64,000 bases of DNA from Candidatus Sumerlaeota bacterium (GCA_026398535.1 JAPLSQ010000058.1:34339-98338), one strand, 5' to 3'; numbered from the stretch's first letter, positions 17,185 through 60,648 are shown. Notes: a model not told the origin generated them from the letters alone. Numbers and translations: made by a program.

Positions 17185-17245
17185 CATGGAGAACACGCCC
17201 CCCCCTGACAAACACGCCCCCCCCTGACAAACACGGAGAAACACG
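17185..17245 (+). repeat. composite repeat filling the whole glgC-lysA spacer
   Basis: CATGGAGAACACG-C8-TGACAAACACG-C8-TGACAAACACGGAGAAACACG, then lysA ATG 17246. Confidence 0.9.
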
Positions 17246-24016: not shown

Positions 24017-24030
24017 GTCAAAATTCCCCA

Positions 24031-24131
24031 CGGGGCGTTGGGCGGGCGGGACGCCCGCGCTCCCAGGACAAACACGGACAAACACGGACAACCACGGACA
24101 ACCAAGGACACGGATGAAATACCCGCACCAA
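24031..24131 (+). repeat. hairpin module + decamers + 33-nt ATG module
   Basis: CGGGGCGTTGGGCGGGCGGGACGCCCGCGCTCCCAGGACAA, ACACGGACAA x2, CCACGGACAA, then CAACCAAGGACACGGATGAAATACCCGCACCAA (24099-24131), identical to 45042-45074. Confidence 0.93.
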
Positions 24132-34457: not shown

Positions 34458-34949
34458 ATGAACGCCAAACACTTTATTGTTTTATCAATCGCCGGCGCCG
34501 CGGTGTGGGCGTTGGCGTCGTCATGCGGCAGTGCGACGGGCGACGACACCAAATCCGAGACGAAGACGGTTGCCATGGTCAAAAAATCCGCCGTGCAGGA
34601 ACTCAACGAAGCCAGCAAAGGCCAGACCATCGTGACGCCCATGGGCAAGACGATCAAGGTTCGGCTGAAATCCAACCGCACGACAGGTTATGGCTGGAAG
34701 GTCAGCGCGTGCGATGACAAGGTGCTCAAAGCCGCGGGCGAACCGGCCTATGAGACGCCCGACACACAGATGATGGGCGCGGGCGGCCACGATGTGTTCA
34801 CCTTCGAGCCAGTCAAGCCCGGTCAAACCGTGCTGAAGCTTGATTATGTGCGTTCGTGGGAGAAGAACACTCCGCCTGAACAAACATGGAGCGTAACGAT
34901 CACGGTATTGCCAAAACCGCCTGCGAATCGTCATGGCCGAAGATCATGA
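34458..34949 (+). CDS. chagasin-family (I42) peptidase inhibitor lipoprotein
   Basis: AGGAG RBS 7 nt upstream; lipobox LASSCG; NRTTGYGW motif; GQTVLKLDYVRSWE. Confidence 0.8.
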   Translation: MNAKHFIVLSIAGAAVWALASSCGSATGDDTKSETKTVAMVKKSAVQELNEASKGQTIVTPMGKTIKVRLKSNRTTGYGWKVSACDDKVLKAAGEPAYETPDTQMMGAGGHDVFTFEPVKPGQTVLKLDYVRSWEKNTPPEQTWSVTITVLPKPPANRHGRRS

Positions 34950-37248
34950 GATGAATCCCAAACCCGCGCGCGCCGCGACAATAACGGCGCTTGTCATTTA
35001 TGCGGTTGCGGTGCTGTTCGTGCTTGCATGGGCGCAGACACCCATTCTCGCGCCGTCAAACATCAACCGCACACAAGCTGCGCTCGAACCCCTGCGCTCG
35101 GTCAGCGATTCGGTTTTTATGTTCAGTCAGGGGGGGCTCATGTCCAACAACAACATGCCCTGGCGCGCTCTCGGCATTTTTGCGCTGTGGTTGTGCGCGC
35201 TCAGTTCGCTGGGCATTGGTGTGTCGCGCGGCATTTTCCCGGCAGGGCTTCTGTGGGAGGAACGCCTGCTCTTCGGTTTCGGCGCCGGATACATCATCAC
35301 CGGGCTTGCCGTGCTGTTTGCCGGTCTGGCTGGTTATGCCACACCCGACTCCGCCGCGCTCATCATTCTGCTTGCGCTGCTTGCGGGGCTTTGGCTCTGC
35401 AGACGCCAGATCGCCGGCATCCTGCGGCGGCGTCCGCCACCCCACACGGACAACCACGGAGAACACGGAGAACACGGACAAGCACGGACAAACACAGACA
35501 AACACGGAGAACACGGAGCATGGCAGGCATCATGGCGCGCTCCGCCCCCCCCCCGGCCGGACAACTGGCGGGTTGCCACGCGGATACTCCTTTTTTTCCT
35601 GTGCGCATTTATGGCCGCCGGATTTCTTTACGCCATGACCCCGCCCATTCAGTCCGACGCGATGCGTTATCATCTTGCGGCGCCCCAGGAGTGGCTCAAA
35701 ACGGGGCGCATCACTTTGTTGCCGCTTAACGCCTTCAGCAATTTCCCTTTTTTGCCCAACATGCATTATATGATTGCTCTGGCATGGGATGGGCCAGAAG
35801 CGTCGCAGATGATGCACTTCGCCATGCTGGCGCTTGTTACCGCGGGACTGTGCGGCTTCGTGCGCCGTTTCGTCGAGCCGCTTTATGGTTCGCCGCCTCC
35901 GCGCTCCGCCCCTTTCATCCGGCTTGTTGTCGCAACCATGTATGCCGGGGTTCCCGCGGTGTTCATTGTGGCGTCATGGCCGTTTGTGGACCAGATGTTC
36001 GTGTTTTTCGTCTTTGCGTCGCTTTACTCCATGCTTCTGGCATTGCGGAGCGGGTCACTGGCGGCTTATGTGTTCACCGGTGTGATGATGGGCGGGGCGC
36101 TTGGCTCGAAATACACGGCGCTTATTTTTTTCGGTGTTCTCATGGCGCTTGCCCTGATTGAGCTTTTCGTTGTCCGCCCCCCCCCCGACGCCTGGCGCGC
36201 TGGCGGCGCGCCGCCGCTAATGGCTCGCGCGCGCCGCTTCGCCGTGTTCGTTTTTGTTGCCGTCCTTGTCGGGTCTCCATGGTTCATAAAGAATGTCGTT
36301 TTGACCGGCAATCCCGTTTATCCTTTTGCCAACCAGCTTTTCGGCGGCGGCGACTGGTCAGGGGCCAATGCCAGGCTCTATGAAAGCAAGATGCGCGAAA
36401 AAGGTGAGACGCCCGCGCTGACGGCGTTTTTCAGATCGCCGGTCAAGGCAACCTTTGAGTGGACGCGTTATGAAGGGCAATATCCAGGCGGGGCGCTGGC
36501 GGGCGCGCTCATTGCCGCCGCCGCCGCCGTTGTCATGCTCATTCTGCGGTACCCCCCCCGTGAAAAACGCGCCGGGGCGCTCTATTACACTGCCGCCGCC
36601 GCCGCGCTCTACTATGCCTCATGGTTTGTGAGTTATCAGAGCAACCGCATGCTGGCGCCGTTTTTTGTGATGGCGCTGCCGCTGGCCGCCGTGTTTTTTC
36701 ATGAGTGCCGCATCCTGTCGCGCGGCGCTCTGGCTCTGGCGCTGGCCGTGGCATTGCTGTGCGCCGCCCACGGCATGTTATGGGCGCTCCAGTGGGAATA
36801 CCTGCGCGCCGTGCCGCCCTCCATGTCCTACTTCAACGGTTCGATGTCGCGCGACGAGTATCTTGTGCGCGGACTGAACTTCCGCCAAGCCTATCTTTAT
36901 CTCAACGAGCGTGTCAAACCGGATGAAAGGGTGCTGCTGATTGGCGAGCATCGCATCTACGGGGCGCAGTTCAACGCGATCTGGAGCGACTGGTTCGACA
37001 CGCCCGCCGTGCTCCACATCATGCGCGCCAACAGCATCTCCAGCCCGGCGGCGCTTGAGGGCGCCCTCAGGCTCGCGGGCGTGCGATGGATCCTCGTCAA
37101 TGAAACGGAGATCGCGCCTCAGAACGAATTGTACTGGAGACCGCGATTCACGGCCGAAGAATGGAAACTGCTGCAGACATTCCTGGAAATCCAGTCGCGC
37201 AACCGCATCAACATCCCTCCGGGCGTGTCGGTGATCAGGCTCCCCTGA
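34933..37248 (+). CDS. polytopic GT-C-like (family 39/83-like) glycosyltransferase; possibly two genes fused through a repeat
   Basis: 771-aa ORF, more than 12 hydrophobic helices; residues 171-207 are repeat-encoded; segment after the repeat (TM helix then IQSDAMRYHL loop) looks like a canonical GT-C N-terminus. Confidence 0.45.
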   Translation: MAEDHEMNPKPARAATITALVIYAVAVLFVLAWAQTPILAPSNINRTQAALEPLRSVSDSVFMFSQGGLMSNNNMPWRALGIFALWLCALSSLGIGVSRGIFPAGLLWEERLLFGFGAGYIITGLAVLFAGLAGYATPDSAALIILLALLAGLWLCRRQIAGILRRRPPPHTDNHGEHGEHGQARTNTDKHGEHGAWQASWRAPPPPRPDNWRVATRILLFFLCAFMAAGFLYAMTPPIQSDAMRYHLAAPQEWLKTGRITLLPLNAFSNFPFLPNMHYMIALAWDGPEASQMMHFAMLALVTAGLCGFVRRFVEPLYGSPPPRSAPFIRLVVATMYAGVPAVFIVASWPFVDQMFVFFVFASLYSMLLALRSGSLAAYVFTGVMMGGALGSKYTALIFFGVLMALALIELFVVRPPPDAWRAGGAPPLMARARRFAVFVFVAVLVGSPWFIKNVVLTGNPVYPFANQLFGGGDWSGANARLYESKMREKGETPALTAFFRSPVKATFEWTRYEGQYPGGALAGALIAAAAAVVMLILRYPPREKRAGALYYTAAAAALYYASWFVSYQSNRMLAPFFVMALPLAAVFFHECRILSRGALALALAVALLCAAHGMLWALQWEYLRAVPPSMSYFNGSMSRDEYLVRGLNFRQAYLYLNERVKPDERVLLIGEHRIYGAQFNAIWSDWFDTPAVLHIMRANSISSPAALEGALRLAGVRWILVNETEIAPQNELYWRPRFTAEEWKLLQTFLEIQSRNRINIPPGVSVIRLP
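35443..35554 (+). repeat. decamers + ATGGCAGGCATCATG + C10 run inside GT-C-like ORF
   Basis: CACACGGACAACCACGGAGAACACGGAGAACACGGACAAGCACGGACAAACACAGACAAACACGGAGAACACGGAGC; ATGGCAGGCATCATG 35520-35534; C10 35545-35554 (codon-verified). Confidence 0.93.
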
Positions 37249-37281
37249 ACACGGAGAACACGGAGAACACGGACAAACACG
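37248..37281 (+). repeat. decamers forming the entire intercistronic spacer
   Basis: TGA(37246-37248)-ACACGGAGAACACGGAGAACACGGACAAACACG-ATG(37282). Confidence 0.95.
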
Positions 37282-38820
37282 ATGGAACCATCAACAGCGC
37301 AGGAAACCATTTCGGCCTCGGCAACGGTCTTGCGTTTAACGGCCATTGTTCTGCTTGTGGCGCTCAACGGTTTCTTTGTGGCAGCCGAGTTTGCCATCGT
37401 TCGCGTGCGTGCGACGAGAGTCAAAGCGCTTGCCCGGCGCGGATCGCACATCGCAATAATCGCCGAGCACATGCTTGGGCACCTCAACGCCTACCTGAGC
37501 GCCACGCAACTCGGCATAACGATCGCATCGATCCTGCTCGGCTGGGTGGGTGAATCAACCCTGCGCGTGAGCATCATCGGTCCTGCTTTCAAAGCGCTCA
37601 ACATCACCAACCCAACCTTGCTGCACGTTGTGTCGTTCCTTTTCGGCACGGGGCTTATCGTTTTCCTGCATGTTGTCCTTGGCGAACAGGCGCCCAAGGC
37701 GCTGGCCATCCAATTTCCTGAAATCACGACAATGTGGATCGCCTATCCCCTGAAGTGGTTTTATTACCTCCTGTATCCGATCATCACCGTGCTCAACAAT
37801 GCCTCGCTGCTGATGCTGCGGCTTGTTGGCATTCAACCGGCAACAGAGCATGACATGGGCCATACGGAGGAGGAACTGCGCATGCTCTTCTCGGCCTCCA
37901 CCCGCTCAGGCGTCCTGACCACGGAAAAGCGCGTCCTGCTGGAAAACGTGTTCGATCTTTCCCAGCGCATCGTCCGCCAGATCATGGTGCCGCGCACCCA
38001 GGTGGCCGCCTTCAACCTCCAGAAAACTCTCGCCGACAATATGCGCATCGCGGCGCTGACCGCCCACAGCCGCTACCCGCTCATCGACGGCGATCTCGAC
38101 CATGCCGTGGGACTCATCCACATGAAGGACCTTTTCTGGCAGCTCAAGGAGATGGAAGCCCCGCACCCCCCCCTGAGCGCCGAAGGCGGCGAAGACACTG
38201 GCGGCGCCGCGCCCGACGACCTCAACCCCATGATCTCTGGCGGCGACGTGGCGCTCAACCAGCCTGCGACCGGCGCCGAATTCCTGCGAAAGATCGCCCG
38301 CGAAGTCCCCTACGTGCCCGAAACGATGCGCATCGACAACCTTCTGCGCGAACTCCAGCAGAAGCACGTGCACCTGGCCATGGTCGTGGATGAATACGGA
38401 GGAACATCCGGGCTTGTCACCTTTGAAAATGTCATCGAGGAAATCGTGGGGGAGGTGCAGGACGAGTTCGACCAGGAGACACCGCTTATCCGCCGGATCA
38501 ACGACACGGAATTCGCCATCGACGGCTTCGCGCCGCTCACCGAAGTCAACGACGCTCTGGGATGCGACCTGCGCGCTGAAGATGCCGACACCATCGGCGG
38601 CTACATCCTCGCGGAACTTGGCCGCATGCCCGTGACCGGCGACCGGCTGAGCGCCGAGGGCATCGAACTCACCGTCAGCGAAATGCAACGCCACGGCATC
38701 CAGCGCATCCACGCGCGGCTGCTCGGCCAGGCCGCGCCCGGCGACGAACACGGAGAACACGGAGAACACGGAGAACACGGACAAACACGGACAAACACGG
38801 ACAAACACAGAGAACCATGA
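37282..38820 (+). CDS. CNNM/CorC-HlyC-family transporter (DUF21-CBS pair-CorC_HlyC)
   Basis: LNGFFVAAEFAIVRVR (DUF21), CBS pair, GGTSGLVTFENVIEEIVGEVQDEFD; last about 25 codons (DEHGEHGEHGEHGQTRTNTDKHREP) are repeat-encoded. Confidence 0.88.
   Translation: MEPSTAQETISASATVLRLTAIVLLVALNGFFVAAEFAIVRVRATRVKALARRGSHIAIIAEHMLGHLNAYLSATQLGITIASILLGWVGESTLRVSIIGPAFKALNITNPTLLHVVSFLFGTGLIVFLHVVLGEQAPKALAIQFPEITTMWIAYPLKWFYYLLYPIITVLNNASLLMLRLVGIQPATEHDMGHTEEELRMLFSASTRSGVLTTEKRVLLENVFDLSQRIVRQIMVPRTQVAAFNLQKTLADNMRIAALTAHSRYPLIDGDLDHAVGLIHMKDLFWQLKEMEAPHPPLSAEGGEDTGGAAPDDLNPMISGGDVALNQPATGAEFLRKIAREVPYVPETMRIDNLLRELQQKHVHLAMVVDEYGGTSGLVTFENVIEEIVGEVQDEFDQETPLIRRINDTEFAIDGFAPLTEVNDALGCDLRAEDADTIGGYILAELGRMPVTGDRLSAEGIELTVSEMQRHGIQRIHARLLGQAAPGDEHGEHGEHGEHGQTRTNTDKHREP
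38746..38816 (+). repeat. decamer block forming 3' end of CNNM gene and 5' junction of next gene
   Basis: GAACACGGAGAACACGGAGAACACGGAGAACACGGACAAACACGGACAAACACGGACAAACACAGAGAACC, then ATGA (38817-38820). Confidence 0.95.
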
Positions 38821-40208
38821 GCCAGCCAATGACACCCGCACAACTTCCGCCGCTGAAGAAGCGCGTCGAGTCCGTCGACGCTTTTCGCGGCTTCACGATC
38901 TTTGCCATGATTTTCGTGATCATGGTTGCCGGATACCGCAACCTGCCGCTGACCTTTCCGCATTTTGGCAGCGCGCCGGTGTCGACCTTCAAACACGCCA
39001 GCGAGGACGCCGCCCCCCCCCTACCGCGTGAATGGGCCTTCTGGCAGGGGCTCAAAACATCGGACCCCCCCCTTATTTATTATGCCGGCAAGCTTCTGGC
39101 CTGCGACACAAACTCAAGCTGCACGGTGGCGGTGCTTGGCGACAAGGACACGACGCTGGCCGTGGTGAGCGGGGCGCGCATCCGCGCCGCCAAGCCGCTC
39201 CGGCCCGGCGAGGAGGTGATCGCTCGGTCGCTCGCTCCGGCCCCGCCGCGATCCGGCGTCATGGGCGAACCGGTCAGCGAGTACGCCATCAGGCCGGACA
39301 GCTTCACCATGCAGGGAACCGGCAACGGATGCACATTCTGCGATCTTGTGGCGCCGTTTTTCGTGTTCATTGTCGGCGTGTGCATCCCGCTCAGCAAGCG
39401 CAAGCGCGGCGCCGAATGGTGGCGTCATGTGGGTTTCCGCACTCTCAGCCTCATCCTCGCCGGCGTCCTTTACATTTCGCTCATCCTCAAGCTTTCGTGG
39501 TGGTGGGGCATTTTGCAGGCCATCGGCGCGGCTTATTTCATGGGCGCGGTGGCGATGTTCCTGCCCGTCTGGGGGCGCTGGACAGCGATTGCTGTCATTG
39601 CGGCATTTCACGCATGGATGTCGTGGCATGTTCCTTGGTGGCTGGAGCTGGGCGACAAGACGCGCCCGTTCTTCACGATCGCCAACCTTCACGGCGACCC
39701 GCTTCGCCCCCTCACCGTGCATTGCACGCCCTGGGCGTCGATCTCATGGGGAATCATCGCCATCGCGGGCACGCTCATCGGCGACGCCGTCGCCGGCCGT
39801 GAACCGCGCGCCATCATCCGCCAGTGCCTTGTTGTCGGCGTCATCCTCACCGCCGCTGGCTGGCTGCTTCATATCTATCAGGCGCCGATGAACAAGGACT
39901 ATGTCTCGCCCGCCTATTCCGTGTTCACATCGGGGTTGGGCGCGCTGTGCTACCTCGTGTTTTACCTGCTCATTGACGCGGCGGGCCTGAAACTGTGGGC
40001 GTGGCCGTTCACCGTGTTCGGCGCGAACGCGCTGCTGGCGTATTTCATGCAGCCCGTTGTGCGCATCTTCTTCCAGGCGCTGGGACTGTACCCCTTCTTC
40101 ACCTCGCACGCCGGCTGGAACGGCGTGCTGTGGGGGCTGATCTGGACAACCTGCCTGTGGGTCGTTGTGCTTTGGTGCAACAAAAAAAACATCTATTGGA
40201 AATTATGA
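38817..40208 (+). CDS. DUF5009/DUF1624 acyltransferase-family membrane protein (heparan-alpha-glucosaminide N-acetyltransferase-like)
   Basis: RVESVDAFRGFTIFAMIFV N-terminal motif, about 10 TM helices; long first loop carries two C8-9 runs and repeat A. Confidence 0.6.
   Translation: MSQPMTPAQLPPLKKRVESVDAFRGFTIFAMIFVIMVAGYRNLPLTFPHFGSAPVSTFKHASEDAAPPLPREWAFWQGLKTSDPPLIYYAGKLLACDTNSSCTVAVLGDKDTTLAVVSGARIRAAKPLRPGEEVIARSLAPAPPRSGVMGEPVSEYAIRPDSFTMQGTGNGCTFCDLVAPFFVFIVGVCIPLSKRKRGAEWWRHVGFRTLSLILAGVLYISLILKLSWWWGILQAIGAAYFMGAVAMFLPVWGRWTAIAVIAAFHAWMSWHVPWWLELGDKTRPFFTIANLHGDPLRPLTVHCTPWASISWGIIAIAGTLIGDAVAGREPRAIIRQCLVVGVILTAAGWLLHIYQAPMNKDYVSPAYSVFTSGLGALCYLVFYLLIDAAGLKLWAWPFTVFGANALLAYFMQPVVRIFFQALGLYPFFTSHAGWNGVLWGLIWTTCLWVVVLWCNKKNIYWKL
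39270..39293 (+). repeat. 24-mer repeat A inside CDS (frame 1: PVSEYAIR)
   Basis: exact 24-mer; P152 codon at 39270 by codon count. Confidence 0.95.
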
Positions 40209-40376
40209 CAATATCGTCATTCCGCGCGATCAACAAGCCCCCCCCTGATTATTTAGATGCGGGAGAGATGCCCGCGATCCGATGCTCCGCCCCCCCCCCC
40301 CCGAAAATAAGCGCGCCTCCCGCCAATTTACACGGGCTTGCGCTGTATCAGGTTCATCAACGGCGCCGCGTCGCCC

Positions 40377-40416
40377 GACAACGAACACGGACAAACACGG
40401 ACAAACACGGAGAACC
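40377..40416 (+). repeat. decamer block abutting pckG start
   Basis: GACAACGAACACGGACAAACACGGACAAACACGGAGAACC-ATGA; C12 run at 40290-40301 and C7 at 40238-40244 further upstream. Confidence 0.93.
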
Positions 40417-42294
40417 ATGAGCATGACAATCTGCGGCGACACCCTGACCAGCAACAGGATCGTGAAAAACTGGATCGACGAGATGGCGGCCATGTGCCAG
40501 CCGGACAGAATCGAGTGGATCGAAGGATGCGACGATCAGCGCGACATGTTGCGCGATGAGGCCGCGCGAACGGGCGAGATCATTCCGCTTGATCCCGTCA
40601 AGTACCCAAATTGCTACTACCACCGCACCCATCCCCTCGATGTGGCGCGCACAGAGGACAAAACATTCATCTGCTGCCGCAACGAGAAAAACGCCGGCGC
40701 CACCAACAACTGGAAAGATCCCGAAGAGGCCTATCTTGAGGCTGCAAGCTTTTTACACGGCTCCATGCGCGGCCGCACGATGTATGTCATCCCCTTTTCC
40801 ATGGGCCCCATCGGCTCGCCCTTCAGCAAAATCGGGATTGAACTCACCGACAGCATCTACGTGGCGCTTAACATGATGATCATGACTCGCGTTGGCCGCG
40901 AGGTGCTCGACGCGCTTGGCTCAAGCGCCGATTTCACCCGGTGCCTGCACAGCAAGGCGGGCCTCGACCCCGACAAGCGCCGCATCCTCCATTTCCCCGA
41001 AGACAACACCATCTGGTCCGTGAACTCGGGTTATGGCGGCAACGTGCTGCTCGGCAAGAAGTGCCTCGCGCTGCGCCTGGCAAGCTGGATGGCATGGCAG
41101 GAGGGGTGGCTCGCCGAGCACATGCTCATTCTCGGCATCGAGGAGCCAACCGGCTATGTGGATTACATTGCCGCCGCCTTCCCCAGCGCCTGCGGCAAAA
41201 CAAACCTGGCCATGCTCGTCCCCCCGGAAGGGCTGAAAAGCAAAGGCTACCGCATCTGGACCGTTGGCGACGACATCGCATGGATCCGCCCCGACACCGA
41301 CGGGCGCTTGTGGGCCATCAATCCCGAGGCGGGATTCTTCGGCGTATGCCCCGGCACCAATTCGCGCACCAATCCCAACGCCATGGCAACCCTGCAAAAA
41401 AACACCATCTTCACCAATGTCGTGCTTGGCAATGACGGCACGATCTGGTGGGAGGAAGGCGACGGCGATCCGCCCGCCGGCGCCCTCGACTGGCTGGGCA
41501 ATCCATGGCATACCGGCAAAAAAGACGCCAAAGGCGGCGTGATTGCCGGGGCGCACGCCAACAGCCGTTTCACCGCGCCGTTGCGCCAATGCCCCTCGGC
41601 TTCGCACCGCGTGGAGCACCACCACGGCGTGCCCATTTCGGCGATCATCTTCGGCGGCCGCCGCGAGCGCCTGGCCCCGCTGGTGTACGAGGCGCTGTCA
41701 TGGAACCACGGCGTGTTCATCGGCGCCAGCATGGCAAGCGAACGAACCGCCGCGCAGTACGGCACGCAGGGCGAGGTGCGCCGCGACCCCTTCGCCATGC
41801 TCCCATTCTGCGGCTATAACATCGCGGAATATTTCAAGCACTGGATAAAAATGGGGCGCACCGTCAAACATCCCCCGAAGATATTCCATGTGAACTGGTT
41901 CCGCAAAGACGCCGACGGCAAATTTCTGTGGCCCGGCTACGGCGAGAACCTGCGCGTCCTCGAATGGGTGCTCCAACGCACACGCGGCGAAGGCGACGCC
42001 GTGCTCTCGCCCATCGGCTATCTTCCCACACCCGACGCTTTCGACATGACCGGCCTCATACTTTCGAAGGCCGCCATGGCAAAACTGCTCGAGGTCACTG
42101 GGGAAGACTGGAAGCAGGAAGCCAACAGTGTTGGCGAGTTTTTCGACACGCTCGGTCCTTGCATGCCTTGGGAAGTGCGCAACGAGCTGGAAGCCCTGCG
42201 GCGAAGGTTGGAGCCAGGGGAGAACACGGACAACCACGAACAAGCACGGACAAGCACGGACAAAGAACGAATAACACCCACAATCCTGCCGTGA
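40417..42294 (+). CDS. pckG: phosphoenolpyruvate carboxykinase (GTP)
   Basis: FPSACGKTNLAM (P-loop), WAINPEAGFFGV, NWFRKDADGKFLWPGYGENLRVLEW; last about 25 codons repeat-encoded. Confidence 0.95.
   Translation: MSMTICGDTLTSNRIVKNWIDEMAAMCQPDRIEWIEGCDDQRDMLRDEAARTGEIIPLDPVKYPNCYYHRTHPLDVARTEDKTFICCRNEKNAGATNNWKDPEEAYLEAASFLHGSMRGRTMYVIPFSMGPIGSPFSKIGIELTDSIYVALNMMIMTRVGREVLDALGSSADFTRCLHSKAGLDPDKRRILHFPEDNTIWSVNSGYGGNVLLGKKCLALRLASWMAWQEGWLAEHMLILGIEEPTGYVDYIAAAFPSACGKTNLAMLVPPEGLKSKGYRIWTVGDDIAWIRPDTDGRLWAINPEAGFFGVCPGTNSRTNPNAMATLQKNTIFTNVVLGNDGTIWWEEGDGDPPAGALDWLGNPWHTGKKDAKGGVIAGAHANSRFTAPLRQCPSASHRVEHHHGVPISAIIFGGRRERLAPLVYEALSWNHGVFIGASMASERTAAQYGTQGEVRRDPFAMLPFCGYNIAEYFKHWIKMGRTVKHPPKIFHVNWFRKDADGKFLWPGYGENLRVLEWVLQRTRGEGDAVLSPIGYLPTPDAFDMTGLILSKAAMAKLLEVTGEDWKQEANSVGEFFDTLGPCMPWEVRNELEALRRRLEPGENTDNHEQARTSTDKERITPTILP
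42219..42270 (+). repeat. decamer block at 3' end of pckG
   Basis: GGAGAACACGGACAACCACGAACAAGCACGGACAAGCACGGACAAAGAACGA. Confidence 0.9.
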
Positions 42295-42316
42295 GAAGCA
42301 AAGGCGCCGACTAAGA

Positions 42317-42430
42317 CCGCGAAATTCAGGCCGCGAAATTCAGGCTGCCGGATATCGCTCCGGCTGAATTTCGCGCAATCCTCTCCCTATTCGTCTTCCG
42401 AGAGGATCGTCACACGAATATACAATTCGT
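42317..42430 (+). promoter_or_regulatory. structured leader: tandem 14-mers and three hairpins upstream of metal ABC operon
   Basis: CCGCGAAATTCAGG x2 (42317-42344); either copy can pair with CTGAATTTCGCG (42364-42375); ATCCTCTC/GAGAGGAT (42378-42385/42400-42407); ACGAAT/ATTCGT (42414-42419/42425-42430). Confidence 0.45.
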
Positions 42431-42479
42431 CATACGGGAGTTTGCCGCCGGAAAATCAAGGCTGCAAGCGCTTGCGCTC

Positions 42480-43391
42480 ATGGCGGTTGTCGTGGTCTGT
42501 CTCGGAACGGAGAACCACGGACCCCCCCCTGAACCACGGACAACCACGGACATATCGGGTGTCAGGTTTGCGGTGACCAACTCGTGGCTGGAATGCTGTC
42601 TGCGCGATATCGCCGGCCCCCCCCCGCCTGACGCGGATGTGGCGCGTCTTTGTCCGCCGGGCTCGTGTCCGGGCCATTTTGACATAAAACCGGGCGACGC
42701 GGCTGTGCTTATGAAATGCCAGGCGCTGTTCCGGTTCGATTTTCAGAAATCTCTCGACGCCAGGATACAAGGTCTGCGCACCGAGGGTCCCGCAATCATA
42801 TCCATTCCTGCCCCCGATGGGCTGTGCATCCCGGATCGCTACCTTGAATCTTGCGAGTCAATTCATGATGAACTGGCAAGACTGGAACCCGGCAGGCGTG
42901 CGGTTTTCGATGCCGCGCTGACAGCCACACGCGCGCGGCTCTCGAGCCTGTCCGCGCAGGCGCATGCCACGATTGCGGATGCGCGGTTACCGGGCGTGCG
43001 CGTTGTTGTGTCGGGGCGCCAAGCCGCTTTCTGCCGATGGCTCGGATTGGACACGGTGAGCGCCTATTCCGGCGGGGAGGCCGCGTCGCCCGCGCAACTG
43101 CGGGCGCTTGTAGAGAAAGGGCGTGATGCCAGGGTGCGTTTCGTCATCACGAACCTGCAGGAGGGCCGGCAGATGGGCGAGGCGCTTGCCTATCATCTCG
43201 GCGCCCAAGTGGTCGTGTTCAGCAACTTCCCGGACATGACGAGTTCCCAGAACAGCTTCGACGCCCTGGTAAACATGAACATTCAGGCGCTGATCTCGGC
43301 CGCGGGCGCCATCAGGCACGGAAACCGGTCAGCGAGTACGCCATCAGGCGGACAAACACGGACAAACACGGACAGGCACGGAGAACCATGA
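42480..43391 (+). CDS. TroA/ZnuA-like metal ABC transporter substrate-binding protein (atypical, Cys-rich)
   Basis: VRFAVTNSWLECCLRDIAG...LCPPGSCPGHFDIKPGD...FRFDFQ follows the ZnuA pattern (v.tt..l.d....G...l...g.dpH.ye.p.d); start uncertain (see findings); 3' end repeat-encoded. Confidence 0.55.
   Translation: MAVVVVCLGTENHGPPPEPRTTTDISGVRFAVTNSWLECCLRDIAGPPPPDADVARLCPPGSCPGHFDIKPGDAAVLMKCQALFRFDFQKSLDARIQGLRTEGPAIISIPAPDGLCIPDRYLESCESIHDELARLEPGRRAVFDAALTATRARLSSLSAQAHATIADARLPGVRVVVSGRQAAFCRWLGLDTVSAYSGGEAASPAQLRALVEKGRDARVRFVITNLQEGRQMGEALAYHLGAQVVVFSNFPDMTSSQNSFDALVNMNIQALISAAGAIRHGNRSASTPSGGQTRTNTDRHGEP
42506..42551 (+). repeat. decamers with embedded C8-TGA module
   Basis: AACGGAGAACCACGGA-C8-TGAACCACGGACAACCACGGACA. 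Confidence 0.88.
43308..43387 (+). repeat. A 3' fragment + CACGGAAA + repeat A + decamers
   Basis: GCCATCAGG CACGGAAA, A at 43325-43348 (frame 2: RSASTPSG), CGGACAAACACGGACAAACACGGACAGGCACGGAGAACC, then ATGA. Confidence 0.95.
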
Positions 43392-44200
43392 TATTCACCA
43401 CAGAGACAACCGCCGTGCTCGATGTCGTCAGCCTGCGCGCGGGCCCAACGACCATTCTTTGTGATGTGTCGCTCACGCTTCAGCGTGGCGAATTTGTATG
43501 CGTGCTTGGACCCAATGGCGCCGGCAAGAGCACAATGCTTTCCATGATGAACGGCACGGCGCGGCCAACCGCCGGAACAGTCAGGCTGCTCGGAACGTCC
43601 GTCTGGGAAACCGGGGAGCGAGTCCGCGCCCGCCTGCGTGCGCGCATTGGGACCGTGCTTCAGCGCAGTGAGTACAATCCGCAGATTCCCCTCACCACGC
43701 GCGAGGTGGTCGCGATCGGCCGCGCCGGACCCTGCGGCATCCTGCGGGCGCTTGACACCCAGGACTGGCGCCGCGTTGACGAAGCCATTGACTGTCTTGA
43801 CCTTGCCCCCCTTGCCGGGCGGGTATATCACACTCTTTCAGGCGGCGAACAGCAGAAGACGCAGATCGCGCGCGCGCTGGCACAACACCCCCGGATGCTG
43901 CTGCTCGACGAACCGGCCACCGGCTTGGACATCGACTGGCAGGAACGGATGATCAGTTTGGTCGATTCTCTGTTTGGGAGCGCCGATATCCCTGTCGTCA
44001 TGACGACCCACCACACGGGACATATTCCCCCCTGTTGCAACCGCGTGGTGCTTTTGTCGCGCGGCCGGGTCGTATTTGACGACGCCCCGGACGCCGCACT
44101 CACTGCGCCGGTCCTGTCGGCTCTGTATGGCTGCCGCATTGAAGTCATCGAGCGCAACGGCCGTCGTCACTGTCACAGCGCCGGAGGGTTCGCGCCATGA
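43388..44200 (+). CDS. metal ABC transporter ATP-binding protein (ZnuC-like)
   Basis: GPNGAGKST, LSGGEQQK, LLLDEP; first 19 nt (ATGATATTCACCACAGAGA) also occur at 28781-28799. Confidence 0.9.
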   Translation: MIFTTETTAVLDVVSLRAGPTTILCDVSLTLQRGEFVCVLGPNGAGKSTMLSMMNGTARPTAGTVRLLGTSVWETGERVRARLRARIGTVLQRSEYNPQIPLTTREVVAIGRAGPCGILRALDTQDWRRVDEAIDCLDLAPLAGRVYHTLSGGEQQKTQIARALAQHPRMLLLDEPATGLDIDWQERMISLVDSLFGSADIPVVMTTHHTGHIPPCCNRVVLLSRGRVVFDDAPDAALTAPVLSALYGCRIEVIERNGRRHCHSAGGFAP

Positions 44201-45060
44201 TGTTTCTCTGGCAGGCGGCGGCCGTCCTTGCCGGTTCTTCCACCGGGTTGCTCGGTGTCTATGTCGTCGGATTCCGGATGCCCTTCCTTGGCATCGCGAT
44301 GGCGCATGCCGCGATGGCCGGGGCCGTTCTGGCATGTCTGCTGGGGTTGCCTGTCGGCCCGCTGGCGCTCCTGTTCGCGTTGCTGGCCGCGGCGGTCATG
44401 GCATGGCTTGTCACGACGCATTTACGCGCCGATCTCAACACGGTGACAAGCATCCTGCTTTCGCTCACGATGGGGCTCGCGTTTCTTGGCATCGGTCTGA
44501 ACAAGGGCGATATGACGCCGCTGCTTGGCCTGATGTGGGGCAGCCTGCTTTTTGTGCGGCCGGCGGATGTCTGGATCATGCTGGCGATGATGGCTGCGCT
44601 CGTTCTGTTCGTGACGATGCTGGGCAAGGAGATGGACGCCATGCTGTTCAGCCGCAACATCGCACGCGCCTGCGGCGTCAACGACCGGCTCGTGCTTGTC
44701 CTGTTCCTGGTGCTTGCCGCGGTGATCATCACGGTGAACCTTCAGATTGTGGGCGGACTGCTCATGTACAGCCTGCTCACGAATCCTGCCGCGGCCGCGT
44801 TCGAAATTGGGCGCGGCATGCGCGCGGTGCGGTTTCTGGCCGCCTCGGCCGGCGCGCTCGGCGCTGTTGGCGGTTTCTGGCTGTCCTATCCCCTGAACCT
44901 GCCCACCGGCGCCTGCATCGTTATTGTGAGCGCATTGCTCTACGCCGTCGCATTGGCGGCCGGACAACCACGGAGAACACGGACAAGCACGGACAAGCAC
45001 GGACGAACGAAGACCGGTCAGCGAGTACGCCATCAGGCGGACAACCAAGGACACGGATGA
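44197..45060 (+). CDS. metal ABC transporter permease (ABC-3 / ZnuB-like)
   Basis: 8-9 TM helices, GLLGVYVV...FLGIAMAHAAMAGA typical of ABC-3; ATGA overlap with ATPase; last about 33 codons repeat-encoded. Confidence 0.85.
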   Translation: MMFLWQAAAVLAGSSTGLLGVYVVGFRMPFLGIAMAHAAMAGAVLACLLGLPVGPLALLFALLAAAVMAWLVTTHLRADLNTVTSILLSLTMGLAFLGIGLNKGDMTPLLGLMWGSLLFVRPADVWIMLAMMAALVLFVTMLGKEMDAMLFSRNIARACGVNDRLVLVLFLVLAAVIITVNLQIVGGLLMYSLLTNPAAAAFEIGRGMRAVRFLAASAGALGAVGGFWLSYPLNLPTGACIVIVSALLYAVALAAGQPRRTRTSTDKHGRTKTGQRVRHQADNQGHG

Positions 45061-45074
45061 AATACCCGCACCAA
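44961..45074 (+). repeat. decamers + repeat A + 33-nt ATG module
   Basis: CGGACAACCACGGAGAACACGGACAAGCACGGACAAGCACGGACGAACGAAGA, A at 45014-45037 (frame 3), CGGA, CAACCAAGGACACGGATGAAATACCCGCACCAA (45042-45074). Confidence 0.95.
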
Positions 45075-45932
45075 TCCGATGAGGCCCTCGGCGCGTTCTT
45101 TGACAAGTGCGCCTTGAATGGTGACATGGCGGATTTTACGCCTGAGGAGCAGAGGAAGCTGGCAAGTTTCCTGAGATTGTGGGACATCAGGGCTGGCCAG
45201 CATGTGTTGGAGCCGGGGTGTGGCAGCGGACGCCTGACAGCCCGGCTGGCTTCCATCGCGGGGTCTGAGGGCAGGGTCCATGCGTGCGACCTCTCACCCG
45301 AGATGATCCGCCGCGCGAAACAGCACGGGTTGCCGCCCCAAGCGGAATTTGTTGTCGAATCCATCAACACGCTGCACGAGCCAGACAAATCGTTCGACCA
45401 CGTCGTCTGCCTGAACGTCTTCCCGCATTTCAGCCACCATCCCCGGGCGCTGGCACAGATTGCCCGCGTGCTCAAGCCGGGCGGGCATCTGTGGATCAGC
45501 CATTTTGAAGGAAGCGACCGCATCAATCAGTTCCACCGCGATGCGGCGCCCGAGGTGGCCCAACACATGCTGCCGGGCGCGCAGGCAATGCGGCAACTTA
45601 TAGCCGGAGCCGGCCTCACATGGATAGGGCTGACCGACATACCGGAGATGTACTCGCTGCACGCCATCAAAAGCACGGAGAACACGGACAACCACGGACA
45701 AGCACGAAGAAGCACGGAGAACCCGGAGAGCACGGACAAGCACTACGGCGACATCATGCCGTTGCTCAGGCGCGTCACCACCCCGGCGCTCATGGTTCCA
45801 TTGGTCGGATCATACCATGTGCGCGGCGGTACGGGAAGATGCGAAGCGTCAGAGTCCCAGAAGCTCATGGGGCCGATCGGCCCGACGCTCCACAGAGCCC
45901 ATTTCGCCGGGGCTGACTGCTCATCGAAGTAG
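45057..45932 (+). CDS. class I SAM-dependent methyltransferase with repeat-mediated 3' read-through
   Basis: VLEPGCGSGRL (motif I), VLKPGGHLWI; fold ends near ...EMYSLHAIK (about 45669) but first in-frame stop is at 45930-45932. Confidence 0.7.
   Translation: MKYPHQSDEALGAFFDKCALNGDMADFTPEEQRKLASFLRLWDIRAGQHVLEPGCGSGRLTARLASIAGSEGRVHACDLSPEMIRRAKQHGLPPQAEFVVESINTLHEPDKSFDHVVCLNVFPHFSHHPRALAQIARVLKPGGHLWISHFEGSDRINQFHRDAAPEVAQHMLPGAQAMRQLIAGAGLTWIGLTDIPEMYSLHAIKSTENTDNHGQARRSTENPESTDKHYGDIMPLLRRVTTPALMVPLVGSYHVRGGTGRCEASESQKLMGPIGPTLHRAHFAGADCSSK
45672..45744 (+). repeat. decamer block after methyltransferase fold
   Basis: GCACGGAGAACACGGACAACCACGGACAAGCACGAAGAAGCACGGAGAACCCGGAGAGCACGGACAAGCAC; preceded by ACGCCATCA (A 3'-like fragment). 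Confidence 0.9.
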
Positions 45933-46390
45933 GGAATGTCCGTTGACGGGCCGCCGTCGAGCGGGAAATCCCTCGGAATCCACAAAGCCAGAATCGTCTG
46001 GACCTCGTTGGACCAGCCAAAACCGGGGGCGATGTATTTGTAACGCCGCCCTTCCCGCCCCCCCCCGTTAAACACGTCGCAATACCGGTTGCTCAGGTAG
46101 GGAACCGGCGAGGTCAGTTCCGGCGGCAGAATGTTGTGCTCATCCTGGTTCGCCTGCATGCCCGCGCAGTAGGTGCGCGCGGGCGGATAACGGTTCTGGT
46201 CCGACCGGTACATCTCGACACCGCTGGCAATCGCGCGCAAGTCGGCTTTGGCGCGGGCGACTTTGGATCTGGTCTGCGCCAGCAGAAAGTTGGGCGTCGC
46301 GATGGCCGCAAGGATCGCGATGATCGCCGCGACGATCAGCAGTTCCACGAGTGTGAAACCGGACGCCCGCTTTCCGTCCGCCTTGAGCAT
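45743..46390 (-). CDS. prepilin-type N-terminal cleavage/methylation domain protein (DUF1559 / H-X9-DG family)
   Basis: GFTLVELLIVAAIIAILAAIATPNF; ATG 46388-46390 overlaps upstream stop (TAATG). Confidence 0.85.
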   Translation of the reverse strand: MLKADGKRASGFTLVELLIVAAIIAILAAIATPNFLLAQTRSKVARAKADLRAIASGVEMYRSDQNRYPPARTYCAGMQANQDEHNILPPELTSPVPYLSNRYCDVFNGGGREGRRYKYIAPGFGWSNEVQTILALWIPRDFPLDGGPSTDIPYFDEQSAPAKWALWSVGPIGPMSFWDSDASHLPVPPRTWYDPTNGTMSAGVVTRLSNGMMSP

Positions 46391-47268
46391 TATTCGTAAC
46401 ACTCCCAATCTCTGGCGGAGGCGGGGGCAAGGTTTATGTCCGAGTACTTCCTGACCCAAAGACGGTATGCGCTCGTGCAGGGAAACTCCGTGTCCTCCTG
46501 ATCGAAGATGCCTGTCACGCTGAAGGTTTCCGCGGGCGCTGAATGCGAGTTGAAATCACCCTGGCTGGACAACAGCAGCGTCATGGTGGCAACATTGTCA
46601 TCGGTGATCACGATCGAATTACCCGCGCCCCATTCGCCCGAGACGATGCGGGCATTTGAGAGTTTGCACCACCGGGCCTGGTATTTCTCGCCCCCTGTGG
46701 CGCGCGTCTGGTCGAAGAAGTTGCAGGCGGCGACACAGGGGATCGTTTCCGGGGCCGGCATTCCCGCGCCTGAGGCCAGCTTCGTGACGGTGAACTGCAT
46801 GCCTGGCGCCGCCGAGTGACGCTCGGTGATGTTCACCTTGCCGTTGTGGTCTTCGATGAAGCCATCGATCTGGATGCGGTCGCCCGGCAGGATGTCCGAT
46901 GGAAACCGGGGCCACGCGGGGTTATAGAAGATGCCCGCCCACGCTGCGATGCCGCCGTTGCCGGGCGATTCTCCCTGAACATACGCCTGCCACTGCATGG
47001 ACGTGTCGACAAGTTCAGCCGGGCTGTTCAGCGCGATACCCGAAATCACGACCCTGTTGGGCGAGTTTGCCGGATCGGCGCCTGGCGGCGCGCCGACTTT
47101 CGGGTGCGTTCCCGCGCCGTTTGAATCAACGGCTTCGAGATCCCAGATATGCTCAGCATGTGACAGCGGCGCGACGGCTGCAAGCGCGAGCGCCAGCAGG
47201 AGAACACGGACAAGCACGGACAACCCGGAGAACACGGACAAGCACAGACAACCACGGACAAAGAACAC
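46390..47268 (-). CDS. secreted hypothetical protein
   Basis: 292-aa ORF; ...VLVRVLLLALALAAVAPLSHA|EH signal-like; N-terminal about 22 codons are the antisense reading of a decamer block; start (GTG 47268 or internal GTG) uncertain. Confidence 0.6.
   Translation of the reverse strand: MFFVRGCLCLSVFSGLSVLVRVLLLALALAAVAPLSHAEHIWDLEAVDSNGAGTHPKVGAPPGADPANSPNRVVISGIALNSPAELVDTSMQWQAYVQGESPGNGGIAAWAGIFYNPAWPRFPSDILPGDRIQIDGFIEDHNGKVNITERHSAAPGMQFTVTKLASGAGMPAPETIPCVAACNFFDQTRATGGEKYQARWCKLSNARIVSGEWGAGNSIVITDDNVATMTLLLSSQGDFNSHSAPAETFSVTGIFDQEDTEFPCTSAYRLWVRKYSDINLAPASARDWECYE
47199..47266 (+). repeat. decamer block overlapping 5' end of a - strand CDS
   Basis: GGAGAACACGGACAAGCACGGACAACCCGGAGAACACGGACAAGCACAGACAACCACGGACAAAGAAC. 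Confidence 0.92.
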
Positions 47269-47288
47269 TTCTCAGAAACCCTCCTGTG

Positions 47289-47365
47289 TTCACACGAATT
47301 ATAATTTAGTGTGAATTATGCCGCCATCAAATTCTATTCACACGCTCCAGCCCGTTTGTGTGAAT
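47289..47365. promoter_or_regulatory. two inverted repeats TTCACAC-N13/14-GTGTGAA (candidate NikR operators)
   Basis: TTCACAC 47289-47295 / GTGTGAA 47309-47315; ATTCACAC 47336-47343 / GTGTGAAT 47358-47365; located between nikR and the divergent 47268 operon. Confidence 0.45.
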
Positions 47366-47406
47366 TAGAGGCATCGGCTGTCCTATACAGATTTAGGAGG
47401 CATCAG

Positions 47407-47829
47407 ATGGGTGAAGCAGCCCGATATACTGTTTCAATGGACGGCCGCCTGCTGGAGCAATTCGACGAGCTGATCGACAAGCGCGGATACGCGAACCGCT
47501 CGGAGGCCATCCGCGGCCTTATCCGGGGCGCGCTGGTGGAGGAGCAATGGTCGGCAAGGCCGGCGGCAAAGGTTGCCGCCACAATAACGCTTGTCTATTC
47601 CCATCACGCGGGCGGCATCGCCAACCAGGTCGCGCACACTCAGCATCACCACTGCAATCTCGTCGTTTCCTCCACGCACGTGCATCTTGACAACGACAAC
47701 TGCCTTGAGGTGGTCATCGTCCGAGGCCCGAGCGCCCGGGTGCGGAAACTTGCCGAGGAACTCATCTCGCTCAAGGGAATCAAGCACGGAAAAGCGGTTT
47801 TCACAACCGAGGGGAAAGACATAGTCTAA
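47407..47829 (+). CDS. nikR: nickel-responsive transcriptional regulator NikR
   Basis: RHH N-domain RYTVSMDGRLLEQFDELIDKRGYANRSEAIR; C-domain HTQHHHCNLVVSSTHVHLD; AGGAGG RBS at 47395-47400. Confidence 0.9.
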   Translation: MGEAARYTVSMDGRLLEQFDELIDKRGYANRSEAIRGLIRGALVEEQWSARPAAKVAATITLVYSHHAGGIANQVAHTQHHHCNLVVSSTHVHLDNDNCLEVVIVRGPSARVRKLAEELISLKGIKHGKAVFTTEGKDIV

Positions 47830-49401: not shown

Positions 49402-49453
49402 CCGCTGGTAATGGATGTGCGCGATCCCGGATTTCGCGTGTTCGTTTTATAAA

Positions 49454-49490
49454 AATTATCACGCAAAGACGCAAAGAACGCCAAGGAAGA
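49454..49490 (+). repeat. 37-bp direct repeat, left copy, flanking GxxExxY gene
   Basis: AATTATCACGCAAAGACGCAAAGAACGCCAAGGAAGA; 36/37 identical to 50002-50038. Confidence 0.93.
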
Positions 49491-49561
49491 CAAAAAAGCA
49501 AGGCGAGAGAAAAACAATATGTTTTCCATGGCACGTTACACGGACACAAAGGACGCCAAGC

Positions 49562-49951
49562 ATGACAGAGAACGAAATTGGCAGAATCGTGGTGGACGCC
49601 GCACTCGCTGTTCATCGTGAGCTTGGACCGGGTCTTCTGGAGACTGTATACGAAGTCGTGCTGGCACAAGAATTGTCAGACCGCGGACTGAAGGCCGAAC
49701 GCCAATTACCTGTTTCCATCACTTGCCGGGGAATCACGTTTGATGTGGGATTCCGGGCCGACATCATCGTCGAGGACAAGGTGATCCTGGAATTGAAGTC
49801 TGTCGAAAAAATCACCCCAGCACACAAGAAGCAACTGCTCACATACCTGAAGCTTACAGACACGAAGCTGGGATTCCTGTTAAACTTCGGCGAAGCCTTG
49901 ATAAAAGATGGCATCAGCCGGATGGTCAACGGCCTCGACGAGAGCAGATGA
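49562..49951 (+). CDS. GxxExxY protein (PD-(D/E)XK nuclease superfamily)
   Basis: GPGLLETVY (G-x-x-E-x-x-Y), ADIIVEDKVILELK (D...E.K), about 129 aa. Confidence 0.88.
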   Translation: MTENEIGRIVVDAALAVHRELGPGLLETVYEVVLAQELSDRGLKAERQLPVSITCRGITFDVGFRADIIVEDKVILELKSVEKITPAHKKQLLTYLKLTDTKLGFLLNFGEALIKDGISRMVNGLDESR

Positions 49952-50001
49952 TTCTTGGCGGGCTTGGCGGCTTGGCGAGAGAATGTTTTGGTTGGATTAT
50001 G

Positions 50002-50038
50002 AATTATCGCGCAAAGACGCAAAGAACGCCAAGGAAGA
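50002..50038 (+). repeat. 37-bp direct repeat, right copy
   Basis: AATTATCGCGCAAAGACGCAAAGAACGCCAAGGAAGA. Confidence 0.93.
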
Positions 50039-50097
50039 AAACAAATTTTGCAATCTGCTTGACCTCCGGCGTTAACAAGATTCGTGTGATAGGCACT

Positions 50098-54800: not shown

Positions 54801-54901
54801 CGGAGAATACCGATCCCGCGGCCACCCGGATACTGCGGGCAATGGCAGACCGTTACGATTATGACAATCTCGGAAAGGCGCTGGGAAATGACGATGAATG
54901 A
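51791..54901 (+). CDS. multi-PAS hybrid sensor histidine kinase / response regulator
   Basis: four PAS/PAC units, H-box [39 protein letters not shown], receiver VLVVDDNPD...LMDMRMPDMDG; overlaps SulP stop by 17 nt. Confidence 0.92.
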   Translation: MKAENDKHKKTVARGVKSARGVRRHAEEILRTGEARDSKGRNRVEEELRETNAYLENLINYANAPIIVWDPQFRITRFNHAFEFLSGRTEAEVLGQSLEFLFPPALREHSMALIRQTLSGQRWEVVEIKIQRQDGSERIVLWNSATLLAPDGQTPLATIAQGQDITERKRAEEELRESEASRREQQALLASETNFRAFFEAMTDLIVVATPEGRIFHTNKAVERKLGYSAEELATMHVLDMHPADKRGEAVEIFAAMLRGEREYCPLPLAAKSGAHLPVESRIWLSRWSGADCIFSISKDLSVEREAQQRFERLFHSNPALMTLSTPPDRRFIDVNDAFLKTLGYSRGDVIGKTAAEIGLFANTEKQAAVTETLREKENITNLELQVRCADGAILDGLFSSEVISGQGQQYFLSVMIDITERKRVEEQLKQATDRLMLAARAGNVGIWDYDIVNNRLAWDDQMFRLYGITQDQFGGAYEAWQAGVHPEDRQRGDEEIRFALLGENDFDTEFRVVWLDGSIRNIRALALVQRDASGQPLRMIGTNWDITAEKQAEAELRETNSQLESAMMAAESANHAKSLFLASMSHEIRTPMNAIIGFAEILRADPLLTPLQHNYMEIINRNGEHMLNIINDVLEMSKIEAGQVALSSAVFNLRDLLADAERVFRSQAEAKGLRWLMDWADSVPRYVTGDAVKLRQVLINLLGNAVKFTERGGVTMRVWAGTVEGQPGAARLVAEIEDSGPGIAPEEQGLLFRSFSQAGPGDKRSGAGLGLAISRKFARLMGGDISMTSELGRGSCFRFDAVVQSAEAVAAGNEASRRRSARLQAGAGPVRVLVVDDNPDVRIILAALLKPAGFEVQEAVNGREALQVIEKWLPHVVLMDMRMPDMDGCETMRRMKDTEAGRAIPVITISASVMSSDEERAKKVGSDAFIHKPFQKERLFDELKRLLNLRYDYAEEAGETRAEEAAFLTPEALAALPAELVVKMRQALKRGDMWGLSELTFQAENTDPAATRILRAMADRYDYDNLGKALGNDDE
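53042..53485 (+). repeat. 444-nt PAS-coding segment, near-identical to 58198-58641
   Basis: 148 codons with only 7 amino-acid differences (DITERKR...[10 protein letters not shown]); flanks unrelated. Confidence 0.9.

Positions 54902-56178: not shown

Positions 56179-60648
<4,470 letters not shown>

Follow-up and report, generated by a model that had tools for sequence, protein, structure and literature searches.

Genes and repeats of the locus

The stretch of DNA analysed here (64,000 nt; GCA_026398535.1, JAPLSQ010000058.1:34339-98338), referred to below as the window and numbered from its first letter, comes from a metagenome-assembled genome (MAG) of a Candidatus Sumerlaeota bacterium. Its central part carries plus-strand genes for a CNNM/CorC protein (37282-38820), a membrane protein, PckG (40417-42294), a ZnuA-like binding protein (42480-43391), ZnuC, the ABC-3 permease ZnuB (44197-45060) and an S-adenosylmethionine (SAM)-dependent methyltransferase. 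Blocks of short repeats lie at the ends of several of these genes, and the origin and effects of these repeats are the subject of this work.

The repeat family consists of three main modules. The first is a tandem unit with the consensus CACGGA(C/G)AA, present in a 9-nt form, GAACACGGA, and a 10-nt form, ACACGGACAA. Two-unit matches were found 46 times in the window against 0.29 expected, all 46 of them on the plus strand, and multi-unit arrays 21 times on the plus strand and never on the minus strand. The units of these arrays are directly adjacent and have no spacers, which sets them apart from CRISPR arrays. The second module is the 24-mer CCGGTCAGCGAGTACGCCATCAGG, whose ten exact copies (0 expected) all lie on the plus strand. 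The third is a poly-C tract of 7-13 nt; 26 such tracts, nearly all on the plus strand, are scattered over positions 8908-63600, and runs of at least eight C residues number 25 whereas G runs of this length are missing (approximately 1.1 expected). The poly-C tracts occur in plus-strand genes, where they are read as PPP, in minus-strand genes, where they are read as GGG, and between genes. They are often paired at a distance of 11-110 nt and several precede a TGA. The module types are frequently combined in one block, and a few more pieces are shared between sites, e.g. a GC-rich hairpin module at 20228 and 24028.

T is missing from the tandem units, which leaves all six of their frames free of stop codons, and the composite blocks, the 24-mer included, are open in the three plus-strand frames. 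Any open reading frame (ORF) that enters a block must therefore read through it.

Outside the window the 24-mer was found in three short JGI contigs (L001-L003, metagenome Ga0194044), and no match to it was found in the GTDB representative genomes or in viral contigs. The three JGI contigs carry 1, 2 or 4 tandem copies, have a lower GC content (57-59%) and share no other flanking sequence, hence the 24-mer is not restricted to one genome.

Repeat-encoded C-terminal tails

An earlier note, made from the sequence of the window, had proposed that the last codons of several genes are supplied by the repeats, and had quoted six C-terminal tails. All six were recovered at their coordinates from the ORF list and the raw sequence. 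They are ...DEHGEHGEHGEHGQTRTNTDKHREP of the CNNM protein, ...GENTDNHEQARTSTDKERITPTILP of PckG, ...AIRHGNRSASTPSGGQTRTNTDRHGEP of ZnuA, ...GQPRRTRTSTDKHGRTKTGQRVRHQADNQGHG of ZnuB, GGRDARAPRTTTDNQPGHNQ of a glycerophosphodiester phosphodiesterase (GDPD) and PDGVLADR of an alpha/beta hydrolase, the last being the 24-mer read antisense. The stretch ...RRRLEPGENTDNH belongs to the PckG tail and ...AIRHGNRSASTPSG to that of ZnuA. The methyltransferase ORF, which starts at 45057 and was missing from the earlier note, likewise reads through an array, up to 45932.

The same tails are contained in the NCBI gene calls (509, 625, 303 and 287 amino acids) on a sister MAG, GCA_037138735.1, which is 99.56% identical to the window over 21.9 kb, and for PckG the tail recurs in four assemblies, which come from three sources. 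The annotation of the sister MAG omits the clear methyltransferase ORF (45057-45932) and calls a 122-amino-acid antisense ORF instead.

The genome has its nearest relatives among MAGs of Candidatus Sumerlaeota (BRC1). Additional repeat-free controls came from other species, in the form of orthologous loci retrieved with pilin probes. No arrays and at most one C or G homopolymer run of eight or more residues per locus were found in 13 Sumerlaeota loci (approximately 130 kb), and the same was true of a syntenic locus whose pilin, the protein used as probe, is 80% identical to that of the window. Since the close relatives are free of the repeats, the invasion must be recent. Two of the loci, L132 and L133, retain the ZnuA-ZnuC-ZnuB-methyltransferase operon without any repeat, and the homology of the window proteins to theirs stops at the repeats: at residue 277-289 of 303 in ZnuA, at residue 252-260 of 287 in ZnuB and at residue 205 in the methyltransferase. 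The Pfam envelopes finish 26-33 residues ahead of the stops, and 11 PckG orthologues end 2-4 residues past a conserved ...LRRRL, after which the window PckG has approximately 24 more residues. These homology limits, Pfam ends and orthologue ends bear out the proposal that the tails are encoded by repeats, and show them to be specific to the lineage. The alignment with orthologues, suggested in the note as a way to locate the ancestral C-termini, gave the same answer: the repeat-free relatives do not have these tail sequences.

The CNNM protein is a separate case. Its orthologues possess variable, non-homologous, acidic and disordered tails of 11-33 residues, and because these are of similar length the repeat took the place of a tail that was disordered before and did not add a new one. 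The gene order around PckG and CNNM was not kept in the relatives examined.

Stop/start junctions

At the ends of CNNM, ZnuA and ZnuB the repeat-encoded tail terminates at an ATGA in which the TGA of the upstream gene overlaps the ATG of the next ORF (Table 1), and here the observation of the earlier note stands. Its further claim, that the repeat element brings the ATGA with it, finds no support at the two junctions open to comparison, as repeat-free relatives already have the overlap at ZnuA/ZnuC (L132) and at ZnuB/methyltransferase (L188). In L132 the repeat-free ZnuA orthologue ends ...EQAAGSGK and its junction reads ggaaaATGAtg. The comparison suggests that both overlaps are ancestral and that the repeats were inserted in frame just upstream of them.

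The repeats had also been thought to have displaced the original stop codons. This was the case for PckG and the methyltransferase, where stop loss is clear, and for ZnuB when compared with L132 only; the ancestral stop of ZnuA was retained. For ZnuB, the alignments are compatible with either retention of an ancestral overlap, as in L188, or loss of a stop of the L132 kind, situated 3 nt upstream.

A fourth GGAGAACC-ATGA module, missing from the earlier note, is located at 40410-40420 at the PckG start, where there is no upstream gene; one gene caller places the start of PckG at the second ATG, 40423. Several of the junction modules are duplicated in the window together with their ATG. The 13-mer GAGAACCATGAGC occurs at 38810 and at 40410-40422, the 19-nt sequence ATGATATTCACCACAGAGA containing the ZnuC start occurs at 28783 and 43388, and the 30-nt sequence CCAAGGACACGGATGAAATACCCGCACCAA at 45043, which includes the methyltransferase start, is repeated at 24102, where it belongs to the leader of a glycosyltransferase gene on the minus strand. 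The arrays were therefore copied along with short flanks.

Copies in gene gaps and inside proteins

The arrays fit closely into the gaps between genes. Six of them end 1-5 nt ahead of starts supported by a gene caller (17246, 18678, 37282, 38817, 40417 and 43388) and four begin 0-3 nt past a stop (8234, 17185, 37249 and 47832), against approximately 0.07 and 0.05, respectively, expected for random placement by an arithmetic estimate. In two cases arrays fill the whole gap from stop to start. Copies are also found inside coding regions, in the FtsZ linker and in LysA (diaminopimelate decarboxylase). The FtsZ block is identical in the sister MAG, and the loop that carries the LysA insertion (in comparison with 1knw) varies in a second structure, too.

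Table 1 Repeat blocks and stop/start junctions of the window
Feature	Position	Strand	Remarks
24-mer after gene 785-3268	3272-3295	+	3 nt past the plus-strand stop; antisense reading gives the last 8 codons of the minus-strand alpha/beta hydrolase
Array and two C8 tracts before LysA	17185-17245	+	fills the gap from TGA 17182-17184 to start 17246
24-mer in LysA	18166-18189	+	in frame, RSASTPSG; belongs to 13 residues inserted in comparison with E. coli LysA
GDPD tail: GC-rich hairpin module and array units	20228-20293	+	57-nt copy, 91% identical, at 24028-24084
FtsZ linker composite block (24-mer and 10-nt units)	21644-21715	+	72 nt, in frame; conserved C-terminal peptide DIPAFLKRRKNLFE downstream
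Array before CNNM	37249-37281	+	fills the entire 33-nt gap from the upstream TGA to the CNNM start
CNNM tail array	38743-38816	+	9/10-nt units; last ~25 residues (EHG x4, QTRTNTDKHREP); six frames stop-free
CNNM stop/membrane-protein start ATGA	38817-38820	+	downstream gene 38817-40208
PckG 5' array	40380-40416	+	ends 2 nt ahead of start 40417; GGAGAACC-ATGAGC module, no upstream ORF
PckG 3' array	42219-42263	+	read-through to TGA 42292-42294; tail ~27 residues
ZnuA N-terminal array units and C8 tract	42504-42553	+	TENHGPPPEPRTTTD; precedes the start of homology to relatives
ZnuA tail composite block	43317-43387	+	CACGGAAA, 24-mer 43325-43348, 10-nt units ending GGAGAACC; ~72 nt, in frame
ZnuA stop/ZnuC start ATGA	43388-43391	+	same 4-nt overlap in L132 without repeat; ZnuC homology from residue 9
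ZnuC stop/ZnuB start ATGA	44197-44200	+	no repeat; internal control; overlap also in L132, L133 and L188
ZnuB tail composite block	44961-45056	+	array 44969-45006, 24-mer 45014-45037, then CGGACAACCAAGGACACGG
ZnuB stop/SAM-dependent methyltransferase start ATGA	45057-45060	+	ATGA overlap in L188; L132 stop 3 nt ahead of ATGAac
Methyltransferase 3' array	45668-45743	+	ORF runs over the end of a minus-strand gene, up to 45932

Differences between two strains

Comparison with the sister MAG revealed three polymorphic arrays. The CNNM tail array of the sister MAG lacks one 9-nt unit and still ends at the ATGA. The array at 35455, inside an ORF of 771 amino acids, differs by 9 nt and the frame is retained. 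In the methyltransferase tail a 20-nt indel switches the frame, so that the window has 86 residues where the sister MAG has 139 unrelated ones; this gene has no co-directional gene downstream. ZnuA, ZnuB and PckG are identical in both strains. These differences fit selection on the frame where the ORF must meet the TGA of an ATGA, and no constraint elsewhere.

The 771-amino-acid ORF (34933-37248) contains one array and three poly-C tracts, one of them at 36177-36186. In the sister MAG a 1-nt difference in poly-C leads to two gene calls (425 and 342 amino acids) in place of one, which could reflect phase variation, an assembly error or a gene fusion.

Strand polarity and RNA folding

All arrays, 24-mers and tracts of eight or more C residues lie on the plus strand although 13 of the approximately 47 genes, confirmed as real by Pfam, are on the minus strand, and the same polarity persists in 6.7 kb outside the window. 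No replication signal was found in third-position GC skew, the skew being wholly accounted for by the coding strand. The antisense reading (LSVFVRVCPC) is hydrophobic and rich in cysteine, and selection against it could purge antisense copies from coding regions.

The array RNA is predicted to be nearly unstructured, with a folding energy of -1.9 kcal/mol in 40-nt windows in comparison to -9.2 kcal/mol for the background. The initiation regions behind arrays fold at -3.5, those of other starts at -8.8. The Rfam search gave no family at the gathering threshold and a single chance-level match at E <= 1.

Origin of the repeats

The explanation that we consider probable is that the repeats are a recently expanded, stop-free mosaic, that the protein tails are its by-products and that the 4-nt overlaps which could be tested are ancestral. 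A Sumerlaeota (BRC1)-like genome would have been colonised recently by the mosaic of 9/10-nt units, 24-mer and poly-C. Insertion or expansion of a block at a stop codon, or just upstream of it, would make the ORF run on to the next in-frame stop, and copies would persist only where they are tolerated, that is in stop-start gaps, in last codons, in disordered linkers and in surface loops. At an ancestral ATGA overlap the repeat would enter directly upstream of the downstream start, and selection would then keep those lengths that let the upstream ORF finish at the TGA of the ATGA. The unstructured array RNA with its GGAG motifs would probably stand in for the native ribosome-binding region, so that the downstream gene is not silenced. 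The repeats themselves would be neutral or selfish rather than adaptive, and our best guess is that they spread by replication slippage and ectopic copying on one DNA strand.

Several observations weigh against this explanation. Passive tolerance does not predict the exact fit of arrays to stop-start gaps or the duplication of ATG-bearing modules, and given these two features some targeting or function of the arrays is possible. The argument from frame preservation draws on only the three polymorphic arrays, and the whole repeat survey on approximately 71 kb of one contig. Minus-strand genes or operons contain two arrays (24073 and 33291) and four C tracts in antisense, and near the 13 minus-strand genes there are no copies in minus orientation; selection on the coding sense alone leaves this absence of sense copies near minus-strand genes unexplained. 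The distance between GGAG and ATG is irregular (3-9 nt), hence a Shine-Dalgarno role is not established. Finally, translation of the tails is suggested only by the open frames and by the FtsZ and LysA cases.

Of the other explanations, the one in which the arrays are cis-acting, unstructured A/C-rich leaders is unlikely. They would serve as tracks for ribosome standby or re-initiation or as CsrA-type GGA-binding sites, the tails being a side effect. CA-rich unstructured leaders are known to enhance initiation and CsrA binds GGA motifs. The very low folding energy of the arrays would suit such a role, as would the GGAG or GGA repeated every 9-10 nt and the adjacency to start codons. It is also in line with this proposal that the native PckG leaders of two Hydrogenedentota, ACGGAGGACACGGAC-ATG in one and ACGGAGGACAGAGAC-ATG in the other (L006/L007), each resemble about 1.5 array units, a hint that a ribosome-binding region may have given rise to the unit. 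However, the same DNA is found antisense to minus-strand operons and within coding regions, the GGAG-ATG distance is inconsistent and many units have GGAC instead of GGAG. In other phyla arrays show no clear excess upstream of ORF starts (19 vs 17 of 142 within 60 nt, 12 vs 4 within 20 nt). Neither a matching Rfam family nor a gene for an RNA-binding protein linked to the arrays was found.

The model of the earlier note, a functional, transplantable intercistronic cassette that carries its own stop/start overlap (...GAACC-ATGA) and thereby sets up translational coupling, is quite unlikely. Where a co-directional gene follows, the tail stops precisely at the ATGA in all three cases, the chance of which is approximately (1/3)^3 by simple arithmetic, and arrays abut six starts ahead of which the RNA is unstructured. 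There is also a precedent in mycobacterial interspersed repetitive units (MIRUs), whose insertions sit at start codons in a -4 overlap and keep downstream expression (PMC12548453). The transplantable part of the model agrees with the duplication of ATG-containing junction modules in the window; the other part fails at ZnuA/ZnuC and ZnuB/methyltransferase, where the relatives have the ATGA without the repeat. Moreover, the window has six 4-nt overlaps, of which three (15883, 44197 and 49948) are repeat-free, and only 3 of the 21 arrays end in ATGA. Other arrays follow genes without a co-directional neighbour (PckG, the methyltransferase and the gene before 8234), lie antisense in minus-strand operons (24073 and 33291) or lie within coding regions such as FtsZ and LysA, and for this reason a coupling cassette does not explain the family. 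In addition, the minus-strand genes have no sense-oriented copies, and no internal ORF of the MIRU type was found in the arrays: ORFs starting at CATGGAGAAC end at unrelated places.

It is similarly improbable that the arrays and poly-C tracts are products of a strand-specific DNA synthesis, templated or terminal-transferase-like, which would lay down stop-free filler at gene boundaries and permissive coding sites and would be shared, or spread horizontally, across many bacterial phyla. Such synthesis might be the work of a reverse transcriptase or a primase-polymerase, or result from replication-fork-coupled copying. If this were true, such filler synthesis would be a new genome-writing mechanism and not ordinary slippage.

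An artefact of assembly, polishing or sequencing is very unlikely. In its favour, every source is a MAG, errors are frequent in homopolymers and short tandem repeats, the one-strand bias is odd and in other genomes several of the matches are situated at contig ends; but two independent NCBI assemblies as well as Logan and ENA contigs share the tails, reading frames are intact over dozens of insertions (FtsZ and LysA included), the array differences between strains are whole units and a 19-mer of the array is present in the cultured Marinobacter daqiaonensis.

CACGGAC arrays in other genomes

At least 109 stretches contain this exact 19-mer, CACGGACAAACACGGACAA; they belong to representative genomes of many phyla, archaea included, and the M. 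daqiaonensis isolate is among the carriers. These share an invariant 7-nt core, CACGGAC, with spacers that differ, and some genomes have many copies. The link to viruses is weak, as the 19-mer was found in only 2 viral contigs.

Two kinds of location stand out. In MAGs of Aminicenantes, Acidobacteriota and Deferrimicrobium the arrays lie in frame in very long ORFs of non-ribosomal peptide synthetases, at equivalent module positions (L095, 2483-5726, e.g. ...FGHGRTRTNTDNNMTITYRQLN; also L024, L040 and L126, among others). In four genomes (L077, L103, L122 and L129) arrays, sometimes as an inverted pair, are placed directly upstream of one type of gene, which we take, from inspection by eye, to belong to the four-helix-bundle (23S rRNA intervening-sequence, Avd-like) family. 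Inverted pairs of CACGGAC arrays were also seen in Marinobacter and in termite spirochaetes, and some of the genomes with such arrays have one-sided C or G homopolymers. A literature search on the repeat sequence, on tandem repeats of Hydrogenedentes and on GxxExxY found nothing relevant.

Other features of the window

In the relatives L188, L190 and L191 the genes for NikR, a protein of unknown function, pilin, ZnuA, ZnuC and ZnuB (followed by the methyltransferase) form one block in which pilin is co-oriented with the Znu genes. In the window (region 42480-47829) the block from ZnuA to the methyltransferase is inverted relative to pilin, and the array at 45668-45743 is located at the breakpoint of this inversion. 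The gap between PckG and ZnuA contains two tandem copies of the 14-mer CCGCGAAATTCAGG (42317-42345) with an inverted partner, gaatttcgcg, further on; together they may form a terminator-like hairpin.

In the region 49415-50045 a gene of the PDDEXK_3 (GxxExxY) type has a 44-nt direct repeat on either side (49454-49497 and 50002-50045, 93% identical). These repeats are built from another T-poor tandem unit, CGCAAAGA..., and the gene together with them may constitute a small mobile cassette. The long ORFs 51563-54901 and 56179-60648 have a direct repeat of 300 nt in common (53042-53341 and 58198-58497, copies 97% identical), which suggests a recent duplication or gene conversion.

Implications

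Annotation pipelines record the tails, and occasionally fused or split genes, as real protein, and awareness of a stop-free repeat origin should help in the interpretation of proteins from MAGs of this lineage. In evolutionary terms the locus would be a natural case of non-coding repeats turned into protein segments, those of FtsZ and LysA included, and it indicates that operon junctions tolerate the exchange of the region ahead of a start codon. Unusual features are the placement of every copy on a single strand, the close approach of six arrays to start codons and the occurrence of the CACGGAC heptamer array in many phyla.

Comparison with known repeat systems

The closest analogue appears to be the MIRU family. 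As with MIRUs, tandem repeats are dispersed between genes of operons, lie at start codons, are associated with 4-nt overlaps and vary in copy number between strains. MIRU units measure tens of bp (approximately 40-100 bp), whereas the units found here are 9-10 or 24 nt long. Unlike MIRUs, the arrays have no short ORF of their own, the upstream gene itself reading through them. Copies within coding regions, the restriction to one DNA strand and the different host phylum are further differences. As to co-orientation with the flanking genes, six arrays adjoin plus-strand starts, and some of the other arrays are antisense to operons of the minus strand or are found within genes.

The in-frame insertions at permissive protein sites (the FtsZ linker, the LysA loop and the tails) are shared with Rickettsia palindromic elements (RPEs). 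RPEs are palindromic and approximately 100-150 bp long, however, and the present repeats are short, tandem, non-palindromic and unstructured and form no inverted-repeat family. In their very short tandem units, their many loci located mostly at gene boundaries and their copy-number polymorphism (9, 9 and 20 nt) the repeats resemble short tandemly repeated repetitive (STRR) sequences, variable-number tandem repeats and simple sequence repeats. The cyanobacterial STRR units are heptamers of other sequence, and to our knowledge neither polarity on one strand, nor a stop-free design, nor routine read-through into protein has been described for them.

Repetitive extragenic palindromic (REP) sequences and bacterial interspersed mosaic elements are likewise mosaics of few short modules in varied order, found after stops and between operon genes. 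REPs are imperfect palindromes of alternating orientation mobilised by RAYT transposases; the present repeats have a single orientation and no palindrome, and no transposase gene was seen among the genes of the window. The 1-nt poly-C change that splits the 771-amino-acid ORF and the 20-nt indel that alters the methyltransferase tail recall phase-variable loci, but assembly error or neutral change would look alike. By analogy, the repeats of this Sumerlaeota genome are best regarded as a variant of dispersed repeats of the MIRU, RPE or STRR kind.

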